Origin: Actinomycetes bacterium
Lineage (GTDB): Bacteria; Actinomycetota; Acidimicrobiia; Acidimicrobiales; Ilumatobacteraceae
DNA length: 64,000 nt
Assembly (NCBI GenBank): GCA_029782355.1
Contig: JAKOUY010000036.1
Location: forward strand, 2,193 to 66,192
Reading direction: 5' to 3'
The translations under genes and the position numbers were made by a program. Within the stretch, counting starts at the first letter, position 1. Every line of letters starts with the position of its first letter. The notes below the pieces were generated by a model that was not told where the DNA came from, searched no databases, and saw only the letters and a list, made by a program, of their open reading frames with translations. Below, piece after piece: positions 29,446-59,892 of this stretch.

Positions 29446-30774
29446 ATGTCGGGCATGCTGATCACGGCGCTGGCCGCCGCGGGAACGCTGGTGGCACCGC
29501 TGGGCGTGGCACAACACCAGCCACGGTCGTCCGCCGCCGGCTGCGCCACCGTCGTGAGGCCGGGAGCCGACGTCACGGCCGCGCTGGGCGACGCGCTGGT
29601 CGCCGCCAGCGCCGAGCCGGACCCCCGAGTCGTCGGGCCCGCCGGCGCTCCCCAGGGTCGGGTGTACCTGCCGGCGGGCGAGTACGGGCTGTCCCAGGTG
29701 ACGGTGCCCTCCAACGTCCGCCTGGAGATCGACCCGGGGGCGACCCTGCACCCGGTGCCGACCAGCCGCCCGACGCGGGGGCGCGATTGGGGCATGTTCG
29801 TGTTCGGGACGCCCGACCAGCCAACTCGCAACGTCACGGTGGTGGCCGGTGACGGCTGCGGCGGGCCGGGCACCCCGACCGCGGCGAACAAGCCGGCGTC
29901 GACCGACTTCCGCGGCAACCTCCCGGAGACGGGCATGCACAACATGGCCGTGCCACTGGCCGGATGGAACACCGAGGCGATGTGGGTCCTCGACGTCGAC
30001 CCGGGACACTGGCAGGTCGACGAGCAGGTCACCGGCTTCCTGCTGCACTGGGCCCTCGACGTCGAGATCGGGTCGGTGTTCTCCATCCAGAACCCGGCTC
30101 GCCAGCCCACCGGGATCGGGCCGGTCCCCGGCGTCACCAGCCGGACGACCGTCATGATGTTCGACCCGCACGAGGGGATGCCCGTGCCGGCCGACGAGGC
30201 CGACGCCCGGCTCCCGCAACGGATCCACGTCCACGACCACTACAACATCCTCTCGCCGTCCGGCCAGGGACCGAACCAAGTCCGCTCGTGCATCGACTGC
30301 CGCTTCGAGCGGATCTTCAGCCACGGAGGCGTGGCCCTGCGGATCGAGACCGACGGGATCCGCCGGGTGACCGACTGCACGGCCACCGGTCCCAATGGTC
30401 AGGGGTTCACCACCTACGCCATCGTCGACCGCCTCGTGGCCGAGGACATCGTCGGCGCTGACGGCAATCGCGCCGCGATGTTGACCCCGCACTGCCTGGA
30501 CAGCGGGGTGGTGACCGTCCGCCGGGTCACCGGCTACAGCGAGTTCCAGACCGCGGTCGCCGCAGCCCGCGACCGGGGCAGCCGCTCGGGCGGGTTCGCC
30601 GCCGGCAGCCGGATCGACGAGGTGCGCGCCTGTCCCGGCGACGCCGCCCAGGAGCCGCACCCCGATCGGGACAGCTACCTGCCGGCGACCTCGCAGGTCG
30701 CCGTCGTGGACGCCTCGCCCACGGTCGTGGTGACCCCGGCCCTGCCCTGGCCGGGGTGCGTCAACCCACCGTGA
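29446..30774 (+). CDS. Hypothetical secreted protein (signal peptide; possibly beta-helix-like)
   Basis: The last 442 aa of the artefactual ORF 26974..30774, from ATG 29446 (MSGMLITALAAAGTLVAPLGVAQ). I recognise no family. Confidence 0.5.
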   Translation: MSGMLITALAAAGTLVAPLGVAQHQPRSSAAGCATVVRPGADVTAALGDALVAASAEPDPRVVGPAGAPQGRVYLPAGEYGLSQVTVPSNVRLEIDPGATLHPVPTSRPTRGRDWGMFVFGTPDQPTRNVTVVAGDGCGGPGTPTAANKPASTDFRGNLPETGMHNMAVPLAGWNTEAMWVLDVDPGHWQVDEQVTGFLLHWALDVEIGSVFSIQNPARQPTGIGPVPGVTSRTTVMMFDPHEGMPVPADEADARLPQRIHVHDHYNILSPSGQGPNQVRSCIDCRFERIFSHGGVALRIETDGIRRVTDCTATGPNGQGFTTYAIVDRLVAEDIVGADGNRAAMLTPHCLDSGVVTVRRVTGYSEFQTAVAAARDRGSRSGGFAAGSRIDEVRACPGDAAQEPHPDRDSYLPATSQVAVVDASPTVVVTPALPWPGCVNPP

Positions 30775-46955: not shown

Positions 46956-48356
46956 GTGTGCGGGGTGCTCGGGCTCTCCACGCCACACGGTGACGGGGTG
47001 GCCAGCATGGCCTTCTTCGGCCTGTACGCCCTGCAGCACCGCGGCCAGGAAGCCGCCGGGATCGCCGTCAGCGACGGGCAGCGGGCCCGGCTGCACAAGG
47101 ACGCCGGGCTGGTGGCCAACGTCTTCAACCCCGACCGCCTGGCGCCGCTCACCGGCTACCACGCCATCGGCCACACCCGCTACAGCACCACCGGTGGCAG
47201 CGGAGCGCGCAACGCCCAGCCGTTCCTGGTCGAGACCATGCACGGCCCGATGGCCCTGGCGCACAACGGCAACCTGGTCAACGCCCCGGCGCTGCGGGCC
47301 GAGCTGCTGTCGCGCGGCTTCGGGCTGACCGCCAGCAGCGACACCGAGGTGATGACGCTGATGCTCACCTCGGCCGGCGGGCGCGACTGGGAGGAACGCC
47401 TCGAGCGCACCCTGCCGGCCTGGAAGGGGGCCTACAGCCTGGTGATCCTGACCCACGACCGGGTCCTCGCCGCCCGTGACCCATGGGGCTTCCGGCCGCT
47501 GTCGATCGGCCGCTTGCCCGATGGCGGCTGGGCGGCGGCGTCGGAGACCTGCGCCCTGCTGACCCTCGGGTGCAGCGACGTGGCCGAGGTCGAGCCGGGC
47601 GAGATCGTCACGCTGCAGGGCAGCGAGCTGCGCCGCCGGCGGCTGTTCGCCAGTGGGCGCCCGGCGCACTGCAGCTTCGAGTTCGTCTACTTCAGCCGGC
47701 CGGACAGCACCTGGGCGGGCAGCAACGTCCACCATGCCCGCCAGCGCCTCGGCGAGCGGTTGGCCGCGGAGAGCCCGGTGGATGCCGACGTCGTCGTGCC
47801 GGTGCCGGACAGCAGCATCCCGGCAGCCATCGGCTACAGCCACGTCAGCGGGGTGCCGTTCAACGACGGGCTGATCAAGAATCGCTACATCGGGCGGACC
47901 TTCATCGAGCCCGCCCAGGCCCAGCGCCAGCGCGGGGTGGCGCTGAAGTTCAACGCCCTTGCGGAGAACCTGGCCGGCAAGCGGGTGGTGATGATCGACG
48001 ATTCGCTGGTCCGCGGCACGACGGCCGGACCGCTGGTCAAGCTGGTTCGCGACGCCGGGGCCACCGAGGTCCACCTGCGGATCACCTGCCCGCCCATCAC
48101 CCACGCCTGCCACTTCGGCGTCGACATGGGCCACGACGGCGACCTGATGGCCGCCCGCCACGACGTCGAGGAGATCCGCCGGCACATCGGCTGCGACTCG
48201 CTGGCGTTCCTCAGCCTGGCGGGCATGCTGGCCGCCATCGCCGGCCCGGAGCCGGCCGGCGGTTCGGGCCTGTGCACCGCCTGCTTCACGGGCGACTACC
48301 CCGTCCCGGTGGAGGAGGCCCCGGTGAAGCTGGCCTTCGAGGGAGCGCTGCGCTGA
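46956..48356 (+). CDS. purF: Amidophosphoribosyltransferase
   Basis: In ORF 46695..48356 from GTG 46956, giving (M)CGVLGL with the N-terminal catalytic Cys. LQHRGQE, GHTRYST, and the PRTase loop VVMIDDSLVRGTT are present. Confidence 0.9.
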   Translation: MCGVLGLSTPHGDGVASMAFFGLYALQHRGQEAAGIAVSDGQRARLHKDAGLVANVFNPDRLAPLTGYHAIGHTRYSTTGGSGARNAQPFLVETMHGPMALAHNGNLVNAPALRAELLSRGFGLTASSDTEVMTLMLTSAGGRDWEERLERTLPAWKGAYSLVILTHDRVLAARDPWGFRPLSIGRLPDGGWAAASETCALLTLGCSDVAEVEPGEIVTLQGSELRRRRLFASGRPAHCSFEFVYFSRPDSTWAGSNVHHARQRLGERLAAESPVDADVVVPVPDSSIPAAIGYSHVSGVPFNDGLIKNRYIGRTFIEPAQAQRQRGVALKFNALAENLAGKRVVMIDDSLVRGTTAGPLVKLVRDAGATEVHLRITCPPITHACHFGVDMGHDGDLMAARHDVEEIRRHIGCDSLAFLSLAGMLAAIAGPEPAGGSGLCTACFTGDYPVPVEEAPVKLAFEGALR

Positions 48357-50544
48357 TGCACGTCGTCGTGCTCGGTTCGGGCGGGCGGGAGCACGCCATC
48401 GCCTGGCACGTCGCCCGCCACGGGCACCGGGTTGAGGTGTGCGACTCGATCCACTCGGCAGTCGGCGCCCACCCGGACCTGGTCATCGTCGGGCCCGAAT
48501 CACTGCTGGCCGCGGGGGCCGCCGACCGCTGCACGGCAGCCGGCATCGCCTGCTTCGGCCCCACCGCAGCGCTGGCCCGGTTGGAGACCTCCAAGGCCGA
48601 CGGCCGTGACCTGGCGGCCCGCCTGGGCATCCCCATCCCCCGCTACCGCACGCACCCCGACGCGCCCAGCGCGCTCGACGCGTGGCGCGCCGACGGATGC
48701 CCCCCGGTGGTGGTCAAGCAGGACGGCCTGGCGGCCGGCAAAGGCGTGGCCGTCCCGGACGGTCCGGCCGAGACCGAAGCCGCCATCGTCGCCCTCGGCG
48801 CTGCCGGGCCGCTGGTGGTCGAGCAGCGCATGAGCGGCCCGGAGCTGACCCTCCTGGCCGTCTCCGACGGGCGTCGCGCCGTGGCGCTGCCGCTGGTGCA
48901 GGACCACAAGCGGATCGGCGAGGGGGACACCGGACCGAACACGGGTGGCATGGGCGCGGTGGCCCCCGTCGACCTCGGCCTCGACCCGGCGGCCCTGACG
49001 GCCACGTTCGTCCAGCCGGTCATCGATCACCTCGCCGCCGCCGGGACGCCCTACATCGGGGTGCTGTACGCCGGGCTGATGCTCACGGCGGGCGGGCCTC
49101 GACTGGTGGAGTACAACTGCCGCTTCGGGGATCCCGAGGCCCAGGCCGTCCTGGCGCTGCTGGATGCCGACCTGGCGGCTCTGGCGATGGCCTGCGTCGA
49201 GGGTCGGCTCGACCCCGCCATGGTGACCACCCGAGCCGGGGCAGCCTGCACGGTGGTGGCCGCCGCCCCCGGCTACCCGGACTGCCCGCAGCTCGGCGGC
49301 ACGGTGCGCCTCGACGGCCGCCCGCTGCCCGACGGCAGCGTCGAGCTGGCCGAGGGCGTGGTGCTGCACCCGGCGGGAGTGTGCCGCGGCACGGTCACCG
49401 GCGGGCGGGTGCTGTCGGTCACGGCCACTGCAGCCGACCTCGGTCGGGCCCGACAGCAGGCGTACGACGCGCTGGCGCGCATCGAGCTCGACGGCGTCCA
49501 GGTGCGCGGCGACATCGGCTGGCGGGCCCGGGCGGCGGGCATCGCCACCTACTCGGCGACCGGGGTGGACATCGACGAAGGCAATCGGGCCGTCCGCTCC
49601 CTGGCCGCGGCGGTCGAGGCGACCCACGGCCCTGCCGTGCTGCGCGGCGTCGGCAGCTTCGGCGGGGCCTTCTCCGCCGCGGCGCTGGTCGCCATGGACG
49701 ATCCGGTGCTGGTCGGCTCCACCGACGGCGTCGGCACGAAGGTCGAGCTAGCCGCCCGGGCCGGGCGCTACGCCGGGGTCGGCCAGGACATCGTCAACCA
49801 CTGCATCGACGACGTCCTCGTGCAGGGGGCTCGCCCGCTGTTCTTCCTCGACTACATCGCCGCCGCCCGGATCCGCGCCGAGCAGGTCGCCGAGGTCGTC
49901 GGCGGCATGGCCGCGGCCTGCGCGGCCGGTGGGTGTGCGCTGCTGGGCGGGGAGACCGCCGAGATGCCGGGCGTCTACCACGACGGCCACTTCGACATCG
50001 CCGGCACGCTGGTGGGTGCGGTGGAGCGGGCCGACCTGCTGCCCCGCCCGACGGTGGCCGCCGGCGACGTCCTGGTCGGCCTGGCCTCCAGCGGAGCGCA
50101 CACCAACGGGTACTCGCTGCTGCGCAACCTGTTCGCCTGGCTGCCCCTCGACGCCCAGCCGGCCCCGCTCGATCGCCCGCTGGTCGACGCCCTGCTCGAG
50201 CCGCACCGTTCGTACCTCGACGTCCTCGGCCCGCTGCTCGACCACCCGGCGCTGAAGGCCCTGGCCCACATCACGGGCGGCGGGCTGCCGGAGAACCTGC
50301 CTCGGGTCCTGCCCGAGGGGGTCCACGCCGAGATCCAGCTCGGCTCGTGGCCGCTGCCACCGCTGTTCGAGCTGGTCACCCAGGTCGCCACGACCATGCC
50401 GGTTGAGGAGCTGTACCGGACCCTCAACATGGGCATCGGCATGGTCGTGGTCACCGATCGGCCGGAGGAGATCCGAGCCGCCATCGCCGAGCCGAGCTGG
50501 ATCATCGGGCGCCTGGTGCCCGGCCGGCGCGGGGTCACCCTGCG

Positions 50545-50548
<4 letters not shown>
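48356..50548 (+). CDS. purD-purM: Fused phosphoribosylamine--glycine ligase (PurD) / AIR synthase (PurM)
   Basis: In ORF 47483..50548 from ATG 48356, 730 aa. The PurD part has VVVLGSGGREHA, DHKRIGEGDTGPNTGGMG, EYNCRFGDPE and GDIGWRA. It continues directly into the PurM part: YSATGVDIDEGNRAV, GTDGVGTKV, LGGETAEMPG, AHITGGG. Confidence 0.9.
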
Positions 50549-53826: not shown

Positions 53827-54138
53827 ATGTCCACCGCAGAAGGTTCCGATGTTGCCGCTCGCCTGCGCGACGACCTGGCTCGAGCCGTCGAGCAACGCGA
53901 CCAGCTGGAGGCCGAGTACCAGCAGTGCCTCGAGGATCCCGACGTCCTCCAGGAGGATCGCGACTCGGTGCGGACCCTGCTGGAAGGGGCGCGTGGCGCC
54001 GTCGAACACGCCGAGCGGGCCTTGCAGCGGGTGGAGAGCGGTGAGTACGGCACCTGCTCGGTCTGCGGCAAGCCGATCGGCGCCGCCCGGCTCGAGGCAC
54101 TGCCGGAAGCCACCACCTGCGTGAACTGCACCCCGTGA
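53827..54138 (+). CDS. TraR/DksA family C4-type zinc-finger protein
   Basis: ORF 53827..54138. A coiled-coil-like N-terminus is followed by CSVCGKPIG..R...P....CVNC. Confidence 0.75.
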   Translation: MSTAEGSDVAARLRDDLARAVEQRDQLEAEYQQCLEDPDVLQEDRDSVRTLLEGARGAVEHAERALQRVESGEYGTCSVCGKPIGAARLEALPEATTCVNCTP

Positions 54139-54148
54139 TCCGCCGCCG

Positions 54149-55189
54149 ATGAGCGGACCGTCGATCGAGCTGCCGAGCGACGACCCCGAGGCCCTGTACG
54201 AGCTGTTCGAGCGGCACGGGTGGGGTGACGGCCTGCCGCTGGTCGCCCCGACCGCGGCGCGGGTCGAGGCAATGCTGGCCGAGGGCGCGCCCGGACAGGA
54301 CCCCGACGAGGTCGTCGCCGTGCTGGAGCCGCGCCGTGGTCTGGCCACCCGGCGGATCATCGCCGTCAATGCCGTGCTGGCCGGGTGCCGGCCGGCCCAG
54401 CTCCCCGTCGTGCTCAGCGCAGTGCGCGCCCTGGCCCGCCCGGAGGTCAACCTGCGCGGGGTCAACGCCACCACCCACCCGGTCGCTCCGCTGCTGATCG
54501 TCCACGGGGCCGTCGTCCACGGCGCCGGGTACCGCTACGCCAGCGGCGCCCTGGGCCCCGGCAACCGGGCCAATGCCACCACCGGGCGGGCGGTACGGCT
54601 GATCCTGACCCATGTCGCCGGGGCCACGGTGGGCGACGGTGATGCGTCCACGCAGGGCGGGCCGGCGAAGTACGGCTTCTGCGTCGCCGAGCACGAGTCC
54701 GCCTCCCCGTGGGGTGGGTTCGCCGCCGGGCGCGGGGTGCGCGCCGCCTCGGCCGTCACCGTGCACTGTGGTGAGGGCCCGCACAACGTCCACGACATGG
54801 AGCACGGCGATCCGCAGCTGATCCTCGACAAGCTGGCCTCGGCCATGGCCACCCTCGGCCAGAACAACGCGTGCATCAGCCAGGGCGAGTACGTCGTGCT
54901 GCTCTGCCCGGAGCATGCCGCGGCGATGGCCGCCGCCGGGCTCGACCGGGCGACCATCGCCGAGCGCCTGTGGGAGCGGGCCCGGCACCCGGCGGCGCTG
55001 CTGCGCCGGCACTTCGCCACGCTGGCGTGGGCGCCGTGGATGATGGCGGCCGGCGACGACGACCTGCTGCCGATGACCGAGTCTCCCGCCAACATCCTGG
55101 TGCTCGTCGTGGGCGGCGCGGGCAAGCACTCCTCGATCGTTCCCAGCTGGGGCATGACCCGCAGCGTCACCCTGGCCGTCGAGCCATGA
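54149..55189 (+). CDS. Conserved hypothetical protein (family not recognised)
   Basis: ORF 54149..55189, 346 aa, with coding-like composition. It lies 10 nt after the DksA-like gene and about 20-35 nt before the UGSC gene. Distinctive N-terminal GWGDGLPLVAPT segment. Confidence 0.5.
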   Translation: MSGPSIELPSDDPEALYELFERHGWGDGLPLVAPTAARVEAMLAEGAPGQDPDEVVAVLEPRRGLATRRIIAVNAVLAGCRPAQLPVVLSAVRALARPEVNLRGVNATTHPVAPLLIVHGAVVHGAGYRYASGALGPGNRANATTGRAVRLILTHVAGATVGDGDASTQGGPAKYGFCVAEHESASPWGGFAAGRGVRAASAVTVHCGEGPHNVHDMEHGDPQLILDKLASAMATLGQNNACISQGEYVVLLCPEHAAAMAAAGLDRATIAERLWERARHPAALLRRHFATLAWAPWMMAAGDDDLLPMTESPANILVLVVGGAGKHSSIVPSWGMTRSVTLAVEP

Positions 55190-55208
55190 CGGCGATCGGC
55201 GATGATGG

Positions 55209-56021
55209 ATGGCGGGAGGTTCGATGCTGATCTACGAGCCGTGCGGATCGATCGCCGGGGAGGATGGTGCGCCACGGCGCACGCCGGGCATCCGCCCGTC
55301 ACTGGTCGGGCGGCGCCTCGGCGTGCTCGACAATGGCAAGCCCAATGCCGGCGTGGTGCTCGGTGCCATCGCCCAGACCCTGGTCGGTCGGCACGGCGCC
55401 GTGGCCGGACTGGTCACCGGCAAGGGCCCAGGTGCCAATGCGGCCACCGCCGCCCGTCCGGAGGTCCTCGCCCGGCTGGGCGACGAGGTCGACGTCACGC
55501 TGGTGGGCTCGGCCGATTGAGGGAGCTGCACGTCGTGGAGTGTCCACGACGCCGTCGAGCTGGAGGGCCGCGGAGTCACCGCGCTCGTCGTGACCACCCC
55601 ACCGTTCCTCTCGCTGACCCGCCGGGTCGCCGCCGAGCTGGGGCGTGCGGACCTGGCCGTGCTCGTCGTCCCCCACCCGTTGGGCGGCACCGATCCGGAC
55701 GAGGTGCGCCGGTGGGGCGCCGAGTCGGCCGAGATCGCCGCCCGAGCGCTCGCCGGGACACCCGTGCCCGGATCGGACCAGGCCGAGCCGGCGCGCTTGG
55801 CCGATCTGCAGCAGACGCTGCGCCAGGACGGCGCCGAACTGCGCCTCGAGCGCATCGAGGGTGGCGTCGCCCACCTCACCCTGGAACTCGCCGACGCCCG
55901 CTGCGCCGAGTGCGTCATGCCCGCCGAGTTCATCGAGCGGTTGGCCGGCGCGGCCCTGGCGGCCGAGATCGACGGGCTGGGCGGCGTGGTCGTCCACGAT
56001 CCGCGACGGGAGGACCGATGA
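55209..56021 (+). CDS. UGSC-motif protein with a NifU-like C-terminal domain and in-frame TGA at 55518..55520: candidate selenoprotein
   Basis: ORF 55209..55520 and ORF 55590..56021 are in the same frame with no stop between them other than the TGA. The joined sequence reads ..VDVTLVGSAD-U-GSCTSWSVHDAVELEGRGVTALVVTTPPF.. The C-terminus (LRLERIEGGVAHLTLELADARCAECVMP) is NifU/Nfu-like. ATG 55224, preceded by GGGAGG, is the more likely start. Confidence 0.6.
55531..55551 (+). promoter_or_regulatory. SECIS-like hairpin downstream of the TGA at 55518..55520
   Basis: CGUCGUGGA-GUG-UCCACGACG: a perfect 9-bp stem (or 8 bp with an AGUGU loop). It starts 10 nt after the UGA. Confidence 0.5.
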
Positions 56022-56821
56022 CGGTCACCATCGATCTGGGCGGGCAGGTCGCCCTGATCACCGGCGCCGGAGCCGGGATCGGGCGGAGCATCGCCCACTG
56101 GCTGGCCGGCGCCGGTGCCCACGTGGTGATCGTCGACGGGCGCGGCGAGCGGGTCGACGCCGTGGCCGCGGAGATCGGTGACGCCGGCGGCACGGCCACG
56201 GCGCGGTGCGCCGACCTGCGCGACGACACCGCCCACGACCGCATCGTCACCGACGTCGTCGATCAGCACGGCAGGCTGGACATCGCCGTCAACAACGTCG
56301 GCATGCTGCCGGCCGGTCGGCGGACCCAGCCGTTTCTCGACTACGGGCCCGAGGACTGGCGGGACATCGTCGACCAGAACCTCACCCTCGCCGCGCTGGG
56401 CGCCCGGGCGCAGGCCGGGGCCATGGTCGCCGGTGGGCGGGGCGGGACCCTGCTGTTCGTCAGCTCCGGGGAGACCACCCGGCCGTCGCCGACCAATGCC
56501 ATCTACGCCGCGGCGAAGGCGGCGCTCAACCACCTGGTGACCAGCCTGGCGGTCGAGCTCGGCCCGGCCGGCGTGCGCGTCTTCGCCATCGCTCCGGGAA
56601 CCACGGCCACCGAGCAGGTCGTCGCCGCCCTCGACGAGGAGTACCTCGACGCCGTGGCGGCGTCGACACCGCTGCGCCGGCGGGTCGAACCCGACGAGCT
56701 CGGACGGCTGGCCGTGTTCCTCGCCAGCGACCTGGCGCGGTGCATGACGGGGCAGTTCCTCCTGGCCGACGCCGGTGCCTTCCTGTCCCGGACCCGCCCC
56801 ACGCTGCCGGGCACTGCCTAA
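56018..56821 (+). CDS. SDR family oxidoreductase
   Basis: In ORF 55202..56821 from ATG 56018 (ATGA overlap with the UGSC gene stop). ITGAGAGIGRS, NNVG, YAAAKAA and IAPG are present. Confidence 0.85.
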   Translation: MTVTIDLGGQVALITGAGAGIGRSIAHWLAGAGAHVVIVDGRGERVDAVAAEIGDAGGTATARCADLRDDTAHDRIVTDVVDQHGRLDIAVNNVGMLPAGRRTQPFLDYGPEDWRDIVDQNLTLAALGARAQAGAMVAGGRGGTLLFVSSGETTRPSPTNAIYAAAKAALNHLVTSLAVELGPAGVRVFAIAPGTTATEQVVAALDEEYLDAVAASTPLRRRVEPDELGRLAVFLASDLARCMTGQFLLADAGAFLSRTRPTLPGTA

Positions 56822-56830
56822 GGTCGGTGC

Positions 56831-57667
56831 ATGGCCGCCAGCGATCCGCCCGAGCTCGGCGTGTTCCTCGCCACCCTGACCCTCGGCAACCCGTGGTCGC
56901 CAACGGCCGATGCCGTCGTCACGGCGGCCGACGCCGCCGCGGCGGCCGGGTTCGGCCACGTCGGGATCTCCCGACCGGCGGTGTCCGCGCTGGCGGCGGC
57001 GGGCGCCGATCCCGCCGCGGTGCTGTCCGAGCGTGGCTTGCGGGTCTCCTGCCTGGAGGCGCTGTTCGGCTGGTCGACGGACGGTGACGCAGCGCGAGCC
57101 GAGGCCGCAGCAGCGCTCGACGACGCCGGCGCGGTGGGAGCCGATCTGGTGATGGCGGTCGAGCTGGGCGACCGGCCCGTCGACGTCGAGCGGGCCGCCG
57201 CCAACCTGGCGCTCGTCGCCGAGGTGCTCGGCGGGGCGGGGGTATCACCGTGCGTCGAGTTCCTGCCGTGGTCCGGCATCCCCGATCTGGCCACCGCATG
57301 GGCGGTGGTCGGTCCGGTTCCGTCAGCCCGGTTGCTGGTCGACACCTGGCACTGGGCCCGGCAACCGGGTGGACCCGATCCTCGGCTGCTGGCCTCGATC
57401 CCCGCGGATCGGGTGGCTGCGGTCCAGCTGTGCGACACCCAGCCGGGCGGCGGGCGCGGCGACCTGATGGCGGAGGCGATGACCCGCCGTCTGGATCCGG
57501 GCGAGGGCGACGCCGACATCGGCGGTGTCCTGGCAACCCTGCGGGCGATGGGCGCCGCGCCGCGCTGGAGCGTGGAGGTCTTCGATCCGCATCGCCTGGC
57601 GGCCGAGGGCCCGGCGCGCCGCGCCGAGCAGCAGTTCCGCGCCGCCCGGCGGGCGATGGCCGCCTAG
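56831..57667 (+). CDS. Sugar phosphate isomerase/epimerase family (xylose isomerase-like TIM barrel) protein
   Basis: ORF 56831..57667. The pattern ..VEFLPWS.I.D...A..V......ARLLVDTWHW......P..L..IP..R.....L.D is typical of AP_endonuc_2 TIM barrels. Confidence 0.65.
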   Translation: MAASDPPELGVFLATLTLGNPWSPTADAVVTAADAAAAAGFGHVGISRPAVSALAAAGADPAAVLSERGLRVSCLEALFGWSTDGDAARAEAAAALDDAGAVGADLVMAVELGDRPVDVERAAANLALVAEVLGGAGVSPCVEFLPWSGIPDLATAWAVVGPVPSARLLVDTWHWARQPGGPDPRLLASIPADRVAAVQLCDTQPGGGRGDLMAEAMTRRLDPGEGDADIGGVLATLRAMGAAPRWSVEVFDPHRLAAEGPARRAEQQFRAARRAMAA

Positions 57668-58338: not shown

Positions 58339-59319
58339 TCAGCGTCCGATCGTCGTCGTGGTCGTCGACCGCGCCGGCGGGCGGGAGTCCGCCGGGGAGA
58401 CCTGCGGAGTGGTGGACGACGGCGAGCGCGCCGGCGGTGTCGTCGGCGTGGCCGAGGTCGGCGTGGGTGACGGGGCCGGCGGGCTGGGCGGCGCCGTCGG
58501 AGCGGTCGGTCGCGTCGTCGGCGGCGGCAGCGCCGGCCGGGTCGTCGGGGGCGGGGCGGTGGGCCGCGTCGTCGGCGGGGACGGCCGAGTCGTCGGGGTC
58601 GGGGCGGTGGGCCGCGTCGTCGGCGGGGACGGCCGAGTCGTGGGGGTCGGCGGAGCGGTCGGCCGAGTCGTCGGCGGCAGGCTCGTGGTCGGCGTCGGCC
58701 GGGTGGTCGGGGTCGTCCCCTGGCCGTTGCCGTCGCTGTTGGCCGGCGTGGTCGTCGTCGTGCCCGGGTCGACACCACCGTTGCGAGCGCCGTCGGGCGG
58801 GTCTGTGGTGGGCAGGACCGGCGGAGCCGGTGTCGGCGTCGGTCCGGGCACCACCGGAACCGGCACCGTGCCCGCGCCGATCAGCCCGTTCGGCGTGTTC
58901 GCCCCGTTCGCCGGGACCACTCCCGACGTGGCATCGGCCGGGCCCGTCGGCGAGACGCCGGGGACGGTGGGCGGGATGGTGGTGAGGACGCCCGTTCGCG
59001 GCGTGGTCGAGTTCACCGAGCCACCGGGCGGCGTCGTCCCGCGTGGTTGGTGGTCGTGACCGAACCCGAGTTGGAGCGCCAGGACTCCCGCGCCGACGAG
59101 GATCAGGGCGGCGGCCACCCGCCCCAGCACCCGGGACCGCCACGGGACACCGACGACCGGACGCCGACCGCTGCCGTCGCCCAGCGCGTCGAGCATGGCA
59201 TCGACGGCGGAGTCTCGCCCGACGAGCTCGGCCGCGCTTGCCGGCTGCTGCAGGGATGCAAGCAATCTCAAGCACTCCGCCGAAAGCCGAGCGTCGTCGG
59301 GCGGACTCATGCCGGACAT
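58339..59319 (-). CDS. Putative anti-sigma factor: single-pass membrane protein with a Pro/Thr-rich repetitive extracytoplasmic tail
   Basis: ORF 58339..59319, immediately downstream of the ECF sigma gene. It has one TM helix (VLGRVAAALILVGAGVLAL). The C-terminal repeats are PTTRPTAP/PTTRPSPP. Confidence 0.5.
   Translation of the reverse strand: MSGMSPPDDARLSAECLRLLASLQQPASAAELVGRDSAVDAMLDALGDGSGRRPVVGVPWRSRVLGRVAAALILVGAGVLALQLGFGHDHQPRGTTPPGGSVNSTTPRTGVLTTIPPTVPGVSPTGPADATSGVVPANGANTPNGLIGAGTVPVPVVPGPTPTPAPPVLPTTDPPDGARNGGVDPGTTTTTPANSDGNGQGTTPTTRPTPTTSLPPTTRPTAPPTPTTRPSPPTTRPTAPTPTTRPSPPTTRPTAPPPTTRPALPPPTTRPTAPTAPPSPPAPSPTPTSATPTTPPARSPSSTTPQVSPADSRPPARSTTTTTIGR
58553..58648. repeat. 48-bp tandem duplication (2 units, 1 mismatch) inside the Pro/Thr-rich coding region
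   Basis: GGGGCGGTGGGCCGCGTCGTCGGCGGGGACGGCCGAGTCGT(C/G)GGGGTC at 58553..58600 and 58601..58648. Confidence 0.8.
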
Positions 59320-59340: not shown

Positions 59341-59892
59341 TTACCGGAAATCACGGCGACCCTCCATGGCGTGCTGCAGCCGGGTCAGGCCGCGATGGAT
59401 GGCGACGCGCACTGCGCCCTCGCGCTTGCCCTGGATCGTGGCGATCTCGGCGATGTCCAGGCCGGTGACGTAGCGCAACAGCACCGCCTCGGCCATGTCA
59501 TCGGGGAGCCGGCGGATCAGCGCCAGGGCCCGTTCCAGATCGGCCGTGTCCGGCTGCTCGACGCTCGGTTCGGGAACGGCATCGATCGCCACCGTCGGGC
59601 GGCGGACCCGCTGGCGGATGTCGTCGATGTGCCGGCGGCGGGCGATGGTCATCAGCCAGGCGACGAAGTCACGCCGCCCACCGCGGAAGCGGGTCAGCCC
59701 CCGGGCGACGTCGATCCAGACGGCGCTGGCCAGATCCGCCGGCTCGGCGGCACCACGGCCGCGGAGGTAGCGCAGCACCATCGGCTGAAACGCCGACCAC
59801 AGGGCACCCAGCGCGTCGCGGTCACCGAGACGGGCCGCCTCGAGCGTCTCGGCGAAGTGCCCGCCAACAGACTCGGGCTCATCCGACAGCAC
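59341..59892 (-). CDS. ECF-type RNA polymerase sigma-70 family factor
   Basis: ORF 59341..59892. The region 2 pattern is DLASAVWIDVARGL..F.G....F.AWLMTIARRRHID. The region 4 pattern is AVLLRYVTGLDIAEIATIQGKREGAVRVAIHRGL. Confidence 0.85.
   Translation of the reverse strand: MLSDEPESVGGHFAETLEAARLGDRDALGALWSAFQPMVLRYLRGRGAAEPADLASAVWIDVARGLTRFRGGRRDFVAWLMTIARRRHIDDIRQRVRRPTVAIDAVPEPSVEQPDTADLERALALIRRLPDDMAEAVLLRYVTGLDIAEIATIQGKREGAVRVAIHRGLTRLQHAMEGRRDFR

Follow-up and report, generated by a model that had tools for sequence, protein, structure and literature searches.

Within a 64,000-nucleotide window of an Actinomycetes bacterium of the family Ilumatobacteraceae (assembly GCA_029782355.1, contig JAKOUY010000036.1, positions 2,193 to 66,192 of the forward strand), a block of five genes at 53827-57667 encodes a DksA/TraR-type zinc-finger protein, a 346-residue protein termed X here, a UGSC selenoprotein with a C-terminal Nfu-like domain, a short-chain dehydrogenase/reductase (SDR) and a xylose-isomerase-like TIM-barrel protein (Table 1). 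The names of homologues likewise suggest an actinobacterium of Acidimicrobiia type as the source. A sequence-only reading of this DNA had described the block as a tight same-strand operon of no recognizable pathway built around the selenoprotein candidate. All five open reading frames (ORFs) lie on the forward strand exactly where that reading had placed them, at intergenic distances of 10, 34, -4 and 9 nt (the 34-nt gap becomes 19 nt if the UGSC gene starts at the ATG at 55209), and the block is bordered by opposite-strand genes, an aldo/keto reductase gene upstream and a LytR_C gene downstream. The domain assignments made for the five genes were likewise right; that of the NifU-like tail appears so, PF01106 being found in stand-alone orthologues and a UGSC+PF01106 fusion being on record. 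A promoter and terminator scan, uninformative in DNA as GC-rich as this window (70-75%), revealed neither promoter sites nor a terminator-like site inside the block, and no noteworthy Rfam match to a riboswitch or other RNA was found upstream of or within it.

Table 1. Features of the five-gene block, in window coordinates.
Feature	Coordinates	Strand	Details
DksA/TraR-type C4 zinc-finger protein, 103 aa	53827..54138	+	PF01258, E 2.8e-11
Protein X, 346 aa	54149..55189	+	no Pfam/NCBIfam match
UGSC selenoprotein with C-terminal Nfu-like domain, 265 aa from ATG 55224	55224..56021	+	PF24696
In-frame TGA, selenocysteine (Sec; U of UGSC)	55518..55520	+	lies within SAD-U-GSC
Selenocysteine insertion sequence (SECIS)-type hairpin	55532..55550	+	stem GUCGUGGA/UCCACGAC, 8 bp, apical loop GUG
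Nfu-like domain fused to UGSC	55764..56018	+	CxxC (C-A-E-C) at 55902-55913
SDR oxidoreductase, 267 aa	56018..56821	+	ATGA overlap with UGSC stop
Xylose-isomerase-like TIM barrel, 278 aa	56831..57667	+	PF01261, E 4.5e-22

Comparison with 80 loci from GTDB genomes and six from metagenome assemblies disclosed a much smaller conserved unit. UGSC adjoins X on the same strand at 83 of 87 sources, the other four being cut by contig ends. These loci span at least 10 phyla, with bacterial hosts in Acidimicrobiia, Dehalococcoidia, Rokubacteria/Methylomirabilota, alpha-, beta- and gammaproteobacteria, Binatia and Acidobacteriota, and with a haloarchaeon and a thaumarchaeon among the archaeal hosts. In nearly all loci of the Acidimicrobiia-type clade, defined as those whose X is at least 55% identical to that of the window, X precedes UGSC; in most other lineages UGSC comes first. 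Two or three X/UGSC pairs stand in tandem in Chloroflexi, Acidobacteriota, Vicinamibacterales and betaproteobacteria (L061, L049, L072, L036 and L047, with three tandem UGSC-X pairs at 6371-11753 of L061), which points to paralogue expansion. The two domains are also joined naturally, as UGSC-X and X-UGSC proteins, alongside fusions of X to a thioredoxin reductase, and some 50 fusion proteins, 530-590 aa long, were gathered. The model of one UGSC-X fusion (P0147) reached a predicted local distance difference test (pLDDT) of 93.2 and a predicted template-modelling score (pTM) of 0.93, therefore indicating a fixed arrangement of the UGSC and X domains. Gene order and fusions together show X+UGSC to be the conserved unit, apparently as obligate partners, so that "five-gene operon" would overstate the functional unit. 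The window thus holds a typical Sec-type UGSC member with its obligate partner X, to which a lineage-specific Nfu-like fusion and an SDR have been added.

Archaeal X-UGSC pairs were seen in Natrialba asiatica (L025), Nitrosocosmicus (L052) and a genome labelled Methanobacteriaceae (L083). The UGSC ORF is uninterrupted, of the Cys type, in L025 and L083, and contains a TGA in L052. This archaeal occurrence suggests horizontal spread of the X-UGSC module.

The selenoprotein call made from the window sequence proved right. Reading through the in-frame TGA gives ...LVGSAD-U-GSCTSWSVHD..., and the SAD-TGA-GSC segment (55509-55529) aligns with CGSC of the Cys forms. TGA stands at the aligned break in all 72 unique interrupted UGSC genes, TAA or TAG in none, and the frame resumes directly after it; the ORF is uninterrupted at about 10 loci, and Cys-form fusion proteins carry Cys at the Sec-aligned position. 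The break is followed by a hairpin spanning +15 to +33 from the U of UGA, with an 8-bp stem and an apical loop G-U-N in which G23 and U24, counted from the same U, are invariant; these are also the key apical nucleotides of the Escherichia coli fdhF SECIS. Across 66 distinct sequences, stem pairing is kept in 95.6% of cells and compensatory changes are found in four of the eight stem pairs. The observed covariation score was reached by 0 of 500 shuffles, and sliding the partner strand lowered pairing to 17-47%. Sec decoding at 55518 is thus well supported by comparison of homologous genes. That this TGA is a true stop separating two small genes (55224-55520 and 55590-56021), with no selenoprotein at all, is barely credible: gene callers do split the ORF in this way, and no tRNA-Sec or sel genes were seen in the 64-kb window, but the frame is continuous across the TGA throughout the interrupted set, Cys homologues have Cys there, the covarying hairpin lies at the canonical distance and the Pfam domain PF24696 runs across the break.

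The hairpin also bears on how the protein sequence is read. The peptide T-S-W-S-x-H-D that follows UGSC is encoded by both arms of the SECIS stem (55527-55550 in the window, and the aligned positions of other UGSC genes), and one compensatory change pairs a Trp-to-Cys replacement (TGG to TGC) with a synonymous change in the opposite arm. The RNA stem therefore overlaps part of the conserved peptide (TSW-x-x-HD), and some of what looks like a protein motif may reflect an RNA constraint. Elsewhere in the window, ARAGORN reported a 90-nt "tRNA-Arg (gcg)" at 30640-30729 on the reverse strand, with no Rfam tRNA in the window at the gathering threshold; this call is probably a false positive of GC-rich sequence.

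The start of the UGSC protein at 55224 is that called on the identical public contig and is preceded by GGGAGG. Residues 24-181 match PF24696 (E 2.5e-38; score 132 bits, cut-off 25), and the score against NF041046, 104 bits, lies under the 125-bit equivalog cut-off. With catalogued UGSC proteins it shares PF24696, the U-G-S-C motif, the in-frame TGA and the SECIS hairpin, and it differs from them by the added Nfu-like domain, a rare arrangement. The family appears as the "UGSC-containing protein" in the selenoproteome surveys of the Sargasso Sea and of Global Ocean Sampling (GOS) and is one of the selenoprotein families found in greatest numbers in GOS metagenomes, especially in non-marine samples (PMC2398784); it carries no assigned function (PMC13188914). 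The 2008 survey also mentions a fusion of UGSC with an "Unknown_1" domain (PMC2398784), which is probably X.

A PDB sequence search with the UGSC protein returned nothing meaningful. In the P0147 model, the Sec-equivalent Cys sits between a beta-strand and the N-terminus of a helix. Foldseek matches to this model include lumazine synthase, flavin mononucleotide (FMN) azoreductase, a CheY-like receiver and the GH3 alpha/beta domain; those to the UGSC domain are weak (E 6e-3 to 5e-2, all above 1e-3). They point to a flavodoxin-like alpha/beta domain, a fold class that is indicative only. A thioredoxin-like fold had been suggested in the 2008 survey (PMC2398784). This candidate was left unsupported, the matches being flavodoxin-like and the 50 best Foldseek matches to the fusion model including no thioredoxin-fold protein.

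X, which the sequence-only reading could place in no described family, indeed belongs to none. It contains the motif GWGDGLPLVAPT, and window X matched nothing in Pfam or NCBIfam. A Pfam scan of X with 72 diverse relatives (E<=1) gave scattered chance matches only, and PDB chains searched with the X family profile gave no match at E<=1. The family itself is large, with 4530 representative clusters (50% identity) at E<=1e-3, 822 of them at E<=1e-30, and more than 600 matches in GTDB species genomes among the matches listed. Stand-alone members, where named, are called "hypothetical protein", and the annotation "UGSC family (seleno)protein" is given to UGSC-X fusions such as P0271.

An AlphaFold model of X built with 120 sequences (pLDDT 88.3, pTM 0.90) was compared with the PDB by Foldseek, which returned nothing at E<=1e-3. 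The top matches, the class I fumarate hydratase alpha domain and Toblerone-fold cyclic amide hydrolases, extend over 270-380 columns and are non-significant (E 0.036-1.8, TM 0.17-0.30, root-mean-square deviation 11-18 Å). In a test of a Toblerone-like threefold origin, hhalign assigned probabilities below 1% to internal repeats in X; the threefold internal repeat of the Toblerone-fold hydrolases is thus undetectable in X. With a best E of 0.036 and TM of at most 0.30, homology of X to class I fumarate hydratase or to Toblerone-fold hydrolases was not accepted.

Conservation across the family highlights D27, T35, N74, C80, T109, N142, R147, C178, E181, W188 and H256. In the model, Cys80 (codon 54386-54388) lies in a short loop preceding a helix, and G136-x-G138-x-x-A-N142 forms a glycine-rich loop leading into the R147 helix. 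Almost every member has Cys80. At position 178, about 15-25% of members have another residue in place of Cys, and in the fusions P0283, P0286 and P0191 Cys178 is lost with residue 74 being Cys; a wandering second cysteine of this kind is typical of resolving cysteines in thiol reductases. Two X domains occur within one polypeptide in P0282 (637 aa) and P0227 (717 aa), which suggests that X may normally work as a dimer.

A further set of fusions (P0126, P0132, P0151, P0247, P0270 and others) has lost the U/C-x-x-C motif of UGSC, reading for example IGGS or GGNP, and has mostly kept Cys80; these may be non-redox paralogues. Strict co-loss of the redox residues of UGSC and X was rejected, some fusions losing U/C and keeping Cys80.

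The genes around the pair vary, and the variation has a theme. Among the recurrent neighbours, SDRs lead with 22 loci, ahead of TctC/Bug binding proteins (16), acyl-CoA dehydrogenase (12) and enoyl-CoA hydratase (11), followed by CoA-transferase III (9), Amidohydro_2 (9), luciferase-like monooxygenase (8) and Zn-alcohol dehydrogenase (7), and more rarely by HIBADH-like proteins (5), MmgE/PrpD (4) and DUF6282 (4). Judged by these families, the neighbourhoods are variable islands of predicted organic-acid and acyl-CoA catabolism. Such surroundings, together with many paralogues per genome, argue for an enzyme family diversified by substrate, and the view of a selenium-dependent redox enzyme in organic-acid/acyl-CoA catabolic neighbourhoods has comparative support.

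We propose that X and UGSC form a two-component selenoenzyme working through a thiol/selenol relay, a proposal whose chances we judge to be evenly balanced. Comparison and models showed that the two proteins are partners, that a Sec decoding signal is present, how the domains are predicted to fold and which residues are conserved; which way the electrons flow, what Cys80 does and which class of substrate is used are inferred. UGSC would be the dedicated redox partner of X, its Sec-Gly-Ser-Cys at a helix N-terminus cycling between the selenol/thiol and selenenylsulfide states. NAD(P)H would supply electrons to a flavoprotein of the thioredoxin-reductase type, which could be a dedicated protein or the one that the cell already has; they would pass on to the UGSC selenenylsulfide and from UGSC to Cys80 of X, with Cys178 acting as a movable resolving cysteine. 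X would be the substrate-handling and probably catalytic subunit, in which Cys80, placed at a helix N-terminus and surrounded by the conserved D27, N142, R147, E181 and H256, would be essential. Its glycine-rich loop suggests an anionic ligand (a carboxylate, CoA or phosphate), and X would accordingly carry out a reductive step on a small anionic organic acid or acyl compound. The proposed electron source is consistent with P0143, in which X is fused to a thioredoxin-reductase domain bearing a CAVC redox motif (TIGR01292, E 4.6e-100), and with thioredoxin-reductase-like genes directly upstream of UGSC-X in L049 and L081.

This layout resembles that of thioredoxin-dependent thiol reductases such as methionine sulfoxide reductases, ArsC and peroxiredoxins, with which it has in common a catalytic cysteine at a helix N-terminus, a resolving cysteine that is moved or lost between subfamilies, and a dedicated CxxC/UxxC redoxin with thioredoxin reductase fused or adjacent. 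X shares neither fold nor sequence with those enzymes, and the redoxin here is flavodoxin-like.

Several points weigh against the relay. No thioredoxin-reductase gene is present in the block of this window. The fusions P0126, P0132, P0151 and P0270 have lost the U/C and the second Cys of UGSC and keep Cys80, and therefore the chemistry of X would not always depend on a redox-active partner. Cys178 is not universal. The Cys/His/Asp-Glu set of X would fit a hydrolase or transferase with a nucleophilic cysteine equally well, and the relay leaves the roles of the SDR and the Nfu-like domain unexplained. It is also built on comparison and models, the closeness of Sec to Cys80 in the fusion model being assumed.

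Among other chemistries, the one that fares best is a Stickland-reductase-like reaction, which we consider unlikely. Here X would activate a substituted carboxylate and the UGSC selenol would attack the substrate carbon, as in glycine or D-proline reductase; the Se-C adduct would be resolved by the UGSC Cys, and the selenenylsulfide re-reduced by a thioredoxin-type system. Glycine/sarcosine/betaine and D-proline reductases resemble X+UGSC in that an alpha/beta protein of small or medium size bears Sec in UxxC/CxxU, that it works with a larger substrate-binding subunit lacking Sec, and that it is re-reduced by a thioredoxin-type system; the Sec protein, its larger partner GrdE or PrdA and re-reduction of this type are the established Grd/Prd layout. 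The tight coupling of a UxxC selenoprotein to a larger non-seleno subunit, the thioredoxin-reductase fusions and neighbours, and the carboxylate site suggested by R147 and the glycine-rich loop all agree with such a reaction. So does the preference for Sec, with about 72 TGA forms to about 10 Cys forms in the sampled genomes, which fits a nucleophilic role of selenium like that established for GrdA/PrdB. Against these stands the lack of any detectable sequence, profile or structural similarity of X or UGSC to the GrdA, GrdB, PrdB, GrdE and PrdA families: the GRDA, GRDB and Gly_reductase profiles matched neither UGSC (E<=0.01) nor X and 72 relatives (E<=1), and no structural match was obtained. 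GrdC/D (protein-C-like) proteins are not among the recurrent neighbour families, with no search aimed at them. The hosts are mostly of lineages generally regarded as aerobic heterotrophs, and in the fusions without Sec/Cys, X retains its catalytic residues.

An antioxidant or detoxifying system, in which a peroxidase-like or sulfoxide/arsenate-reductase-like activity would remove a reactive compound outside catabolism, is quite improbable. It would share its thiol/selenol chemistry and thioredoxin-reductase link with known systems of this kind, and the L002 pair has an AhpC/Redoxin gene at a distance of about 3 kb. Yet several paralogous pairs occur per genome, also in tandem; pairs stand systematically among transporters and acyl-CoA/organic-acid enzymes, pointing to substrate-diversified metabolism; and no similarity to known peroxidase or reductase folds was found.

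The remaining genes of the block bear on a different proposal, that all five serve one pathway acting on a single sugar-like or repair substrate, with the DksA-like protein as regulator and X, UGSC, the SDR and the TIM-barrel isomerase/epimerase as its enzymes. The SDR (PF13561 5.6e-54, PF00106 3.5e-47; no NCBIfam equivalog over cut-off) shows the TGxxxGxG cofactor motif as TGAGAGIG and the YxxxK catalytic motif as YAAAK in its translation. Orthologues (E 1e-65 to 1e-110) directly follow UGSC in 8 of 13 evaluable Acidimicrobiia-type loci, and SDR orthologues are also found after UGSC in L004, L005 and L090; a nitroreductase and a 2-hydroxyacid dehydrogenase take the place of the SDR in L002. 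Outside the Acidimicrobiia-type clade, no orthologous SDR is kept with the pair. The SDR thus appears to be a co-inherited accessory gene specific to that clade.

The DksA-like gene (C-x2-C-x17-C-x2-C readable in the translation, all DksA equivalog models under cut-off) stands beside X in the window and at one further locus alone, that of the closest relative found (X 79% identical), where the gene order is purN-guaB-dksA-X-UGSC-SDR. By this distribution it would be a neighbour by position only, outside the conserved module. The TIM barrel scores 79 bits against PF01261 (cut-off 31) and bears a faint resemblance to QuiC (27 bits vs 1200). It lies beside X in the window and the identical public contig and at no other locus, and is likewise best read as a neighbour by position only.

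The shared five-gene pathway consequently has a low probability. The very tight spacing with one ATGA overlap, the lack of an internal terminator-like site, the opposite-strand genes bounding the block and the DksA-X-UGSC-SDR order kept in the closest relative found would all accommodate it. However, no other locus has the TIM barrel, and no locus below 79% identity has the DksA-like gene; the DksA-like gene of the close relative follows guaB within purN-guaB synteny; and L002 has other enzymes where the SDR would stand. Neighbourhood conservation, the check named in the sequence-only reading, was very strong for the X+UGSC pair and failed for the TIM barrel and the DksA-like gene. The five genes do not form one conserved module, the SDR, too, not being generally kept with the pair, and because of this the suggested selenium-dependent catabolic or repair pathway with a sugar-phosphate isomerase finds no comparative support.

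The Nfu-like domain was followed in the same way. The tail of the window UGSC matches PF01106 weakly (E 0.14), and stand-alone Nfu-like ORFs match it better, at 1e-7 in L017 (32.4 bits, cut-off 27), 7e-4 in L012 and 8e-3 in L005. The last 85 residues of the window UGSC align with these orthologues and with the Nfu/NifU C-terminal domain and keep the CxxC, within a motif C-A-E-C-V-M-P, in a copy that is highly divergent from that domain. A hidden Markov model (HMM) built from the Nfu-like orthologues located the domain in seven loci, all in the set at or above 55% identity (Acidimicrobiia-type). The domain is a separate small ORF beside the module in L005, L012, L017 and L018, lies upstream of the module in L009, and is fused to UGSC in L002 and in the protein P0400, the latter being the UGSC+PF01106 fusion on record. 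By alignment, the C-terminal extension of the window UGSC is probably a divergent Nfu/NifU-C domain.

The domain invites a third chemistry, in which X would be an Fe-S hydro-lyase that receives its cluster from the Nfu-like domain and binds it through Cys80, Cys178 and the UGSC Sec/Cys. The best structural matches of X, non-significant as they are, were to class I Fe-S fumarate hydratases; the Nfu-like domain is fused or adjacent in seven loci; and two conserved X cysteines plus the UGSC U/C would supply three ligands. We rate this idea as very improbable, with Foldseek matches at E >=0.036 and TM <=0.30, some members doing without Cys178 and some without the UGSC cysteines, the Nfu-like domain limited to part of one clade, and the thioredoxin-reductase link unexpected for a hydro-lyase.

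Two further features of the window were recorded. At 47483-50548 on the forward strand, one ORF carries GARS_N/A/C (PurD) followed by AIRS/AIRS_C (PurM), with its start probably near 48.4 kb. It looks like a purD-purM fusion, which to our knowledge is unusual for bacteria; purN overlaps its end and guaB follows. On the reverse strand, a Pro/Thr-rich 326-aa ORF without a Pfam match (58342-59319) lies directly downstream of a gene for an extracytoplasmic function (ECF)-type sigma factor (59344-59892) and may encode an anti-sigma factor.

The UGSC family was already catalogued, and the analysis adds its constant partner, X. The family of X, in which at least 4,500 clusters form at 50% identity, has neither a Pfam model nor a structural relative; the thioredoxin fold assumed for UGSC finds no support, and a conserved peptide motif turns out to be in part a SECIS stem. 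Natural Cys-type fusions or pairs occur in cultured organisms such as Embleya (sp. MST-111070), Natrialba asiatica and Vineibacter terrae. For X+UGSC, the variable catabolic neighbours offer a list of candidate substrates, and thioredoxin reductase with NADPH is the likely electron source. Beyond this, we tentatively suggest that X+UGSC may constitute an unrecognised class of selenoenzyme, combining a catalytic X of unrepresented fold with a flavodoxin-like selenoprotein, expanded into many paralogues, and catalysing a reductive step, possibly cleavage of a C-X bond, on organic acids. The hosts belong to lineages that are generally considered to be aerobic heterotrophs of freshwater, soil and marine habitats, and if this suggestion is true, selenium would gain a role in the breakdown of dissolved organic matter.

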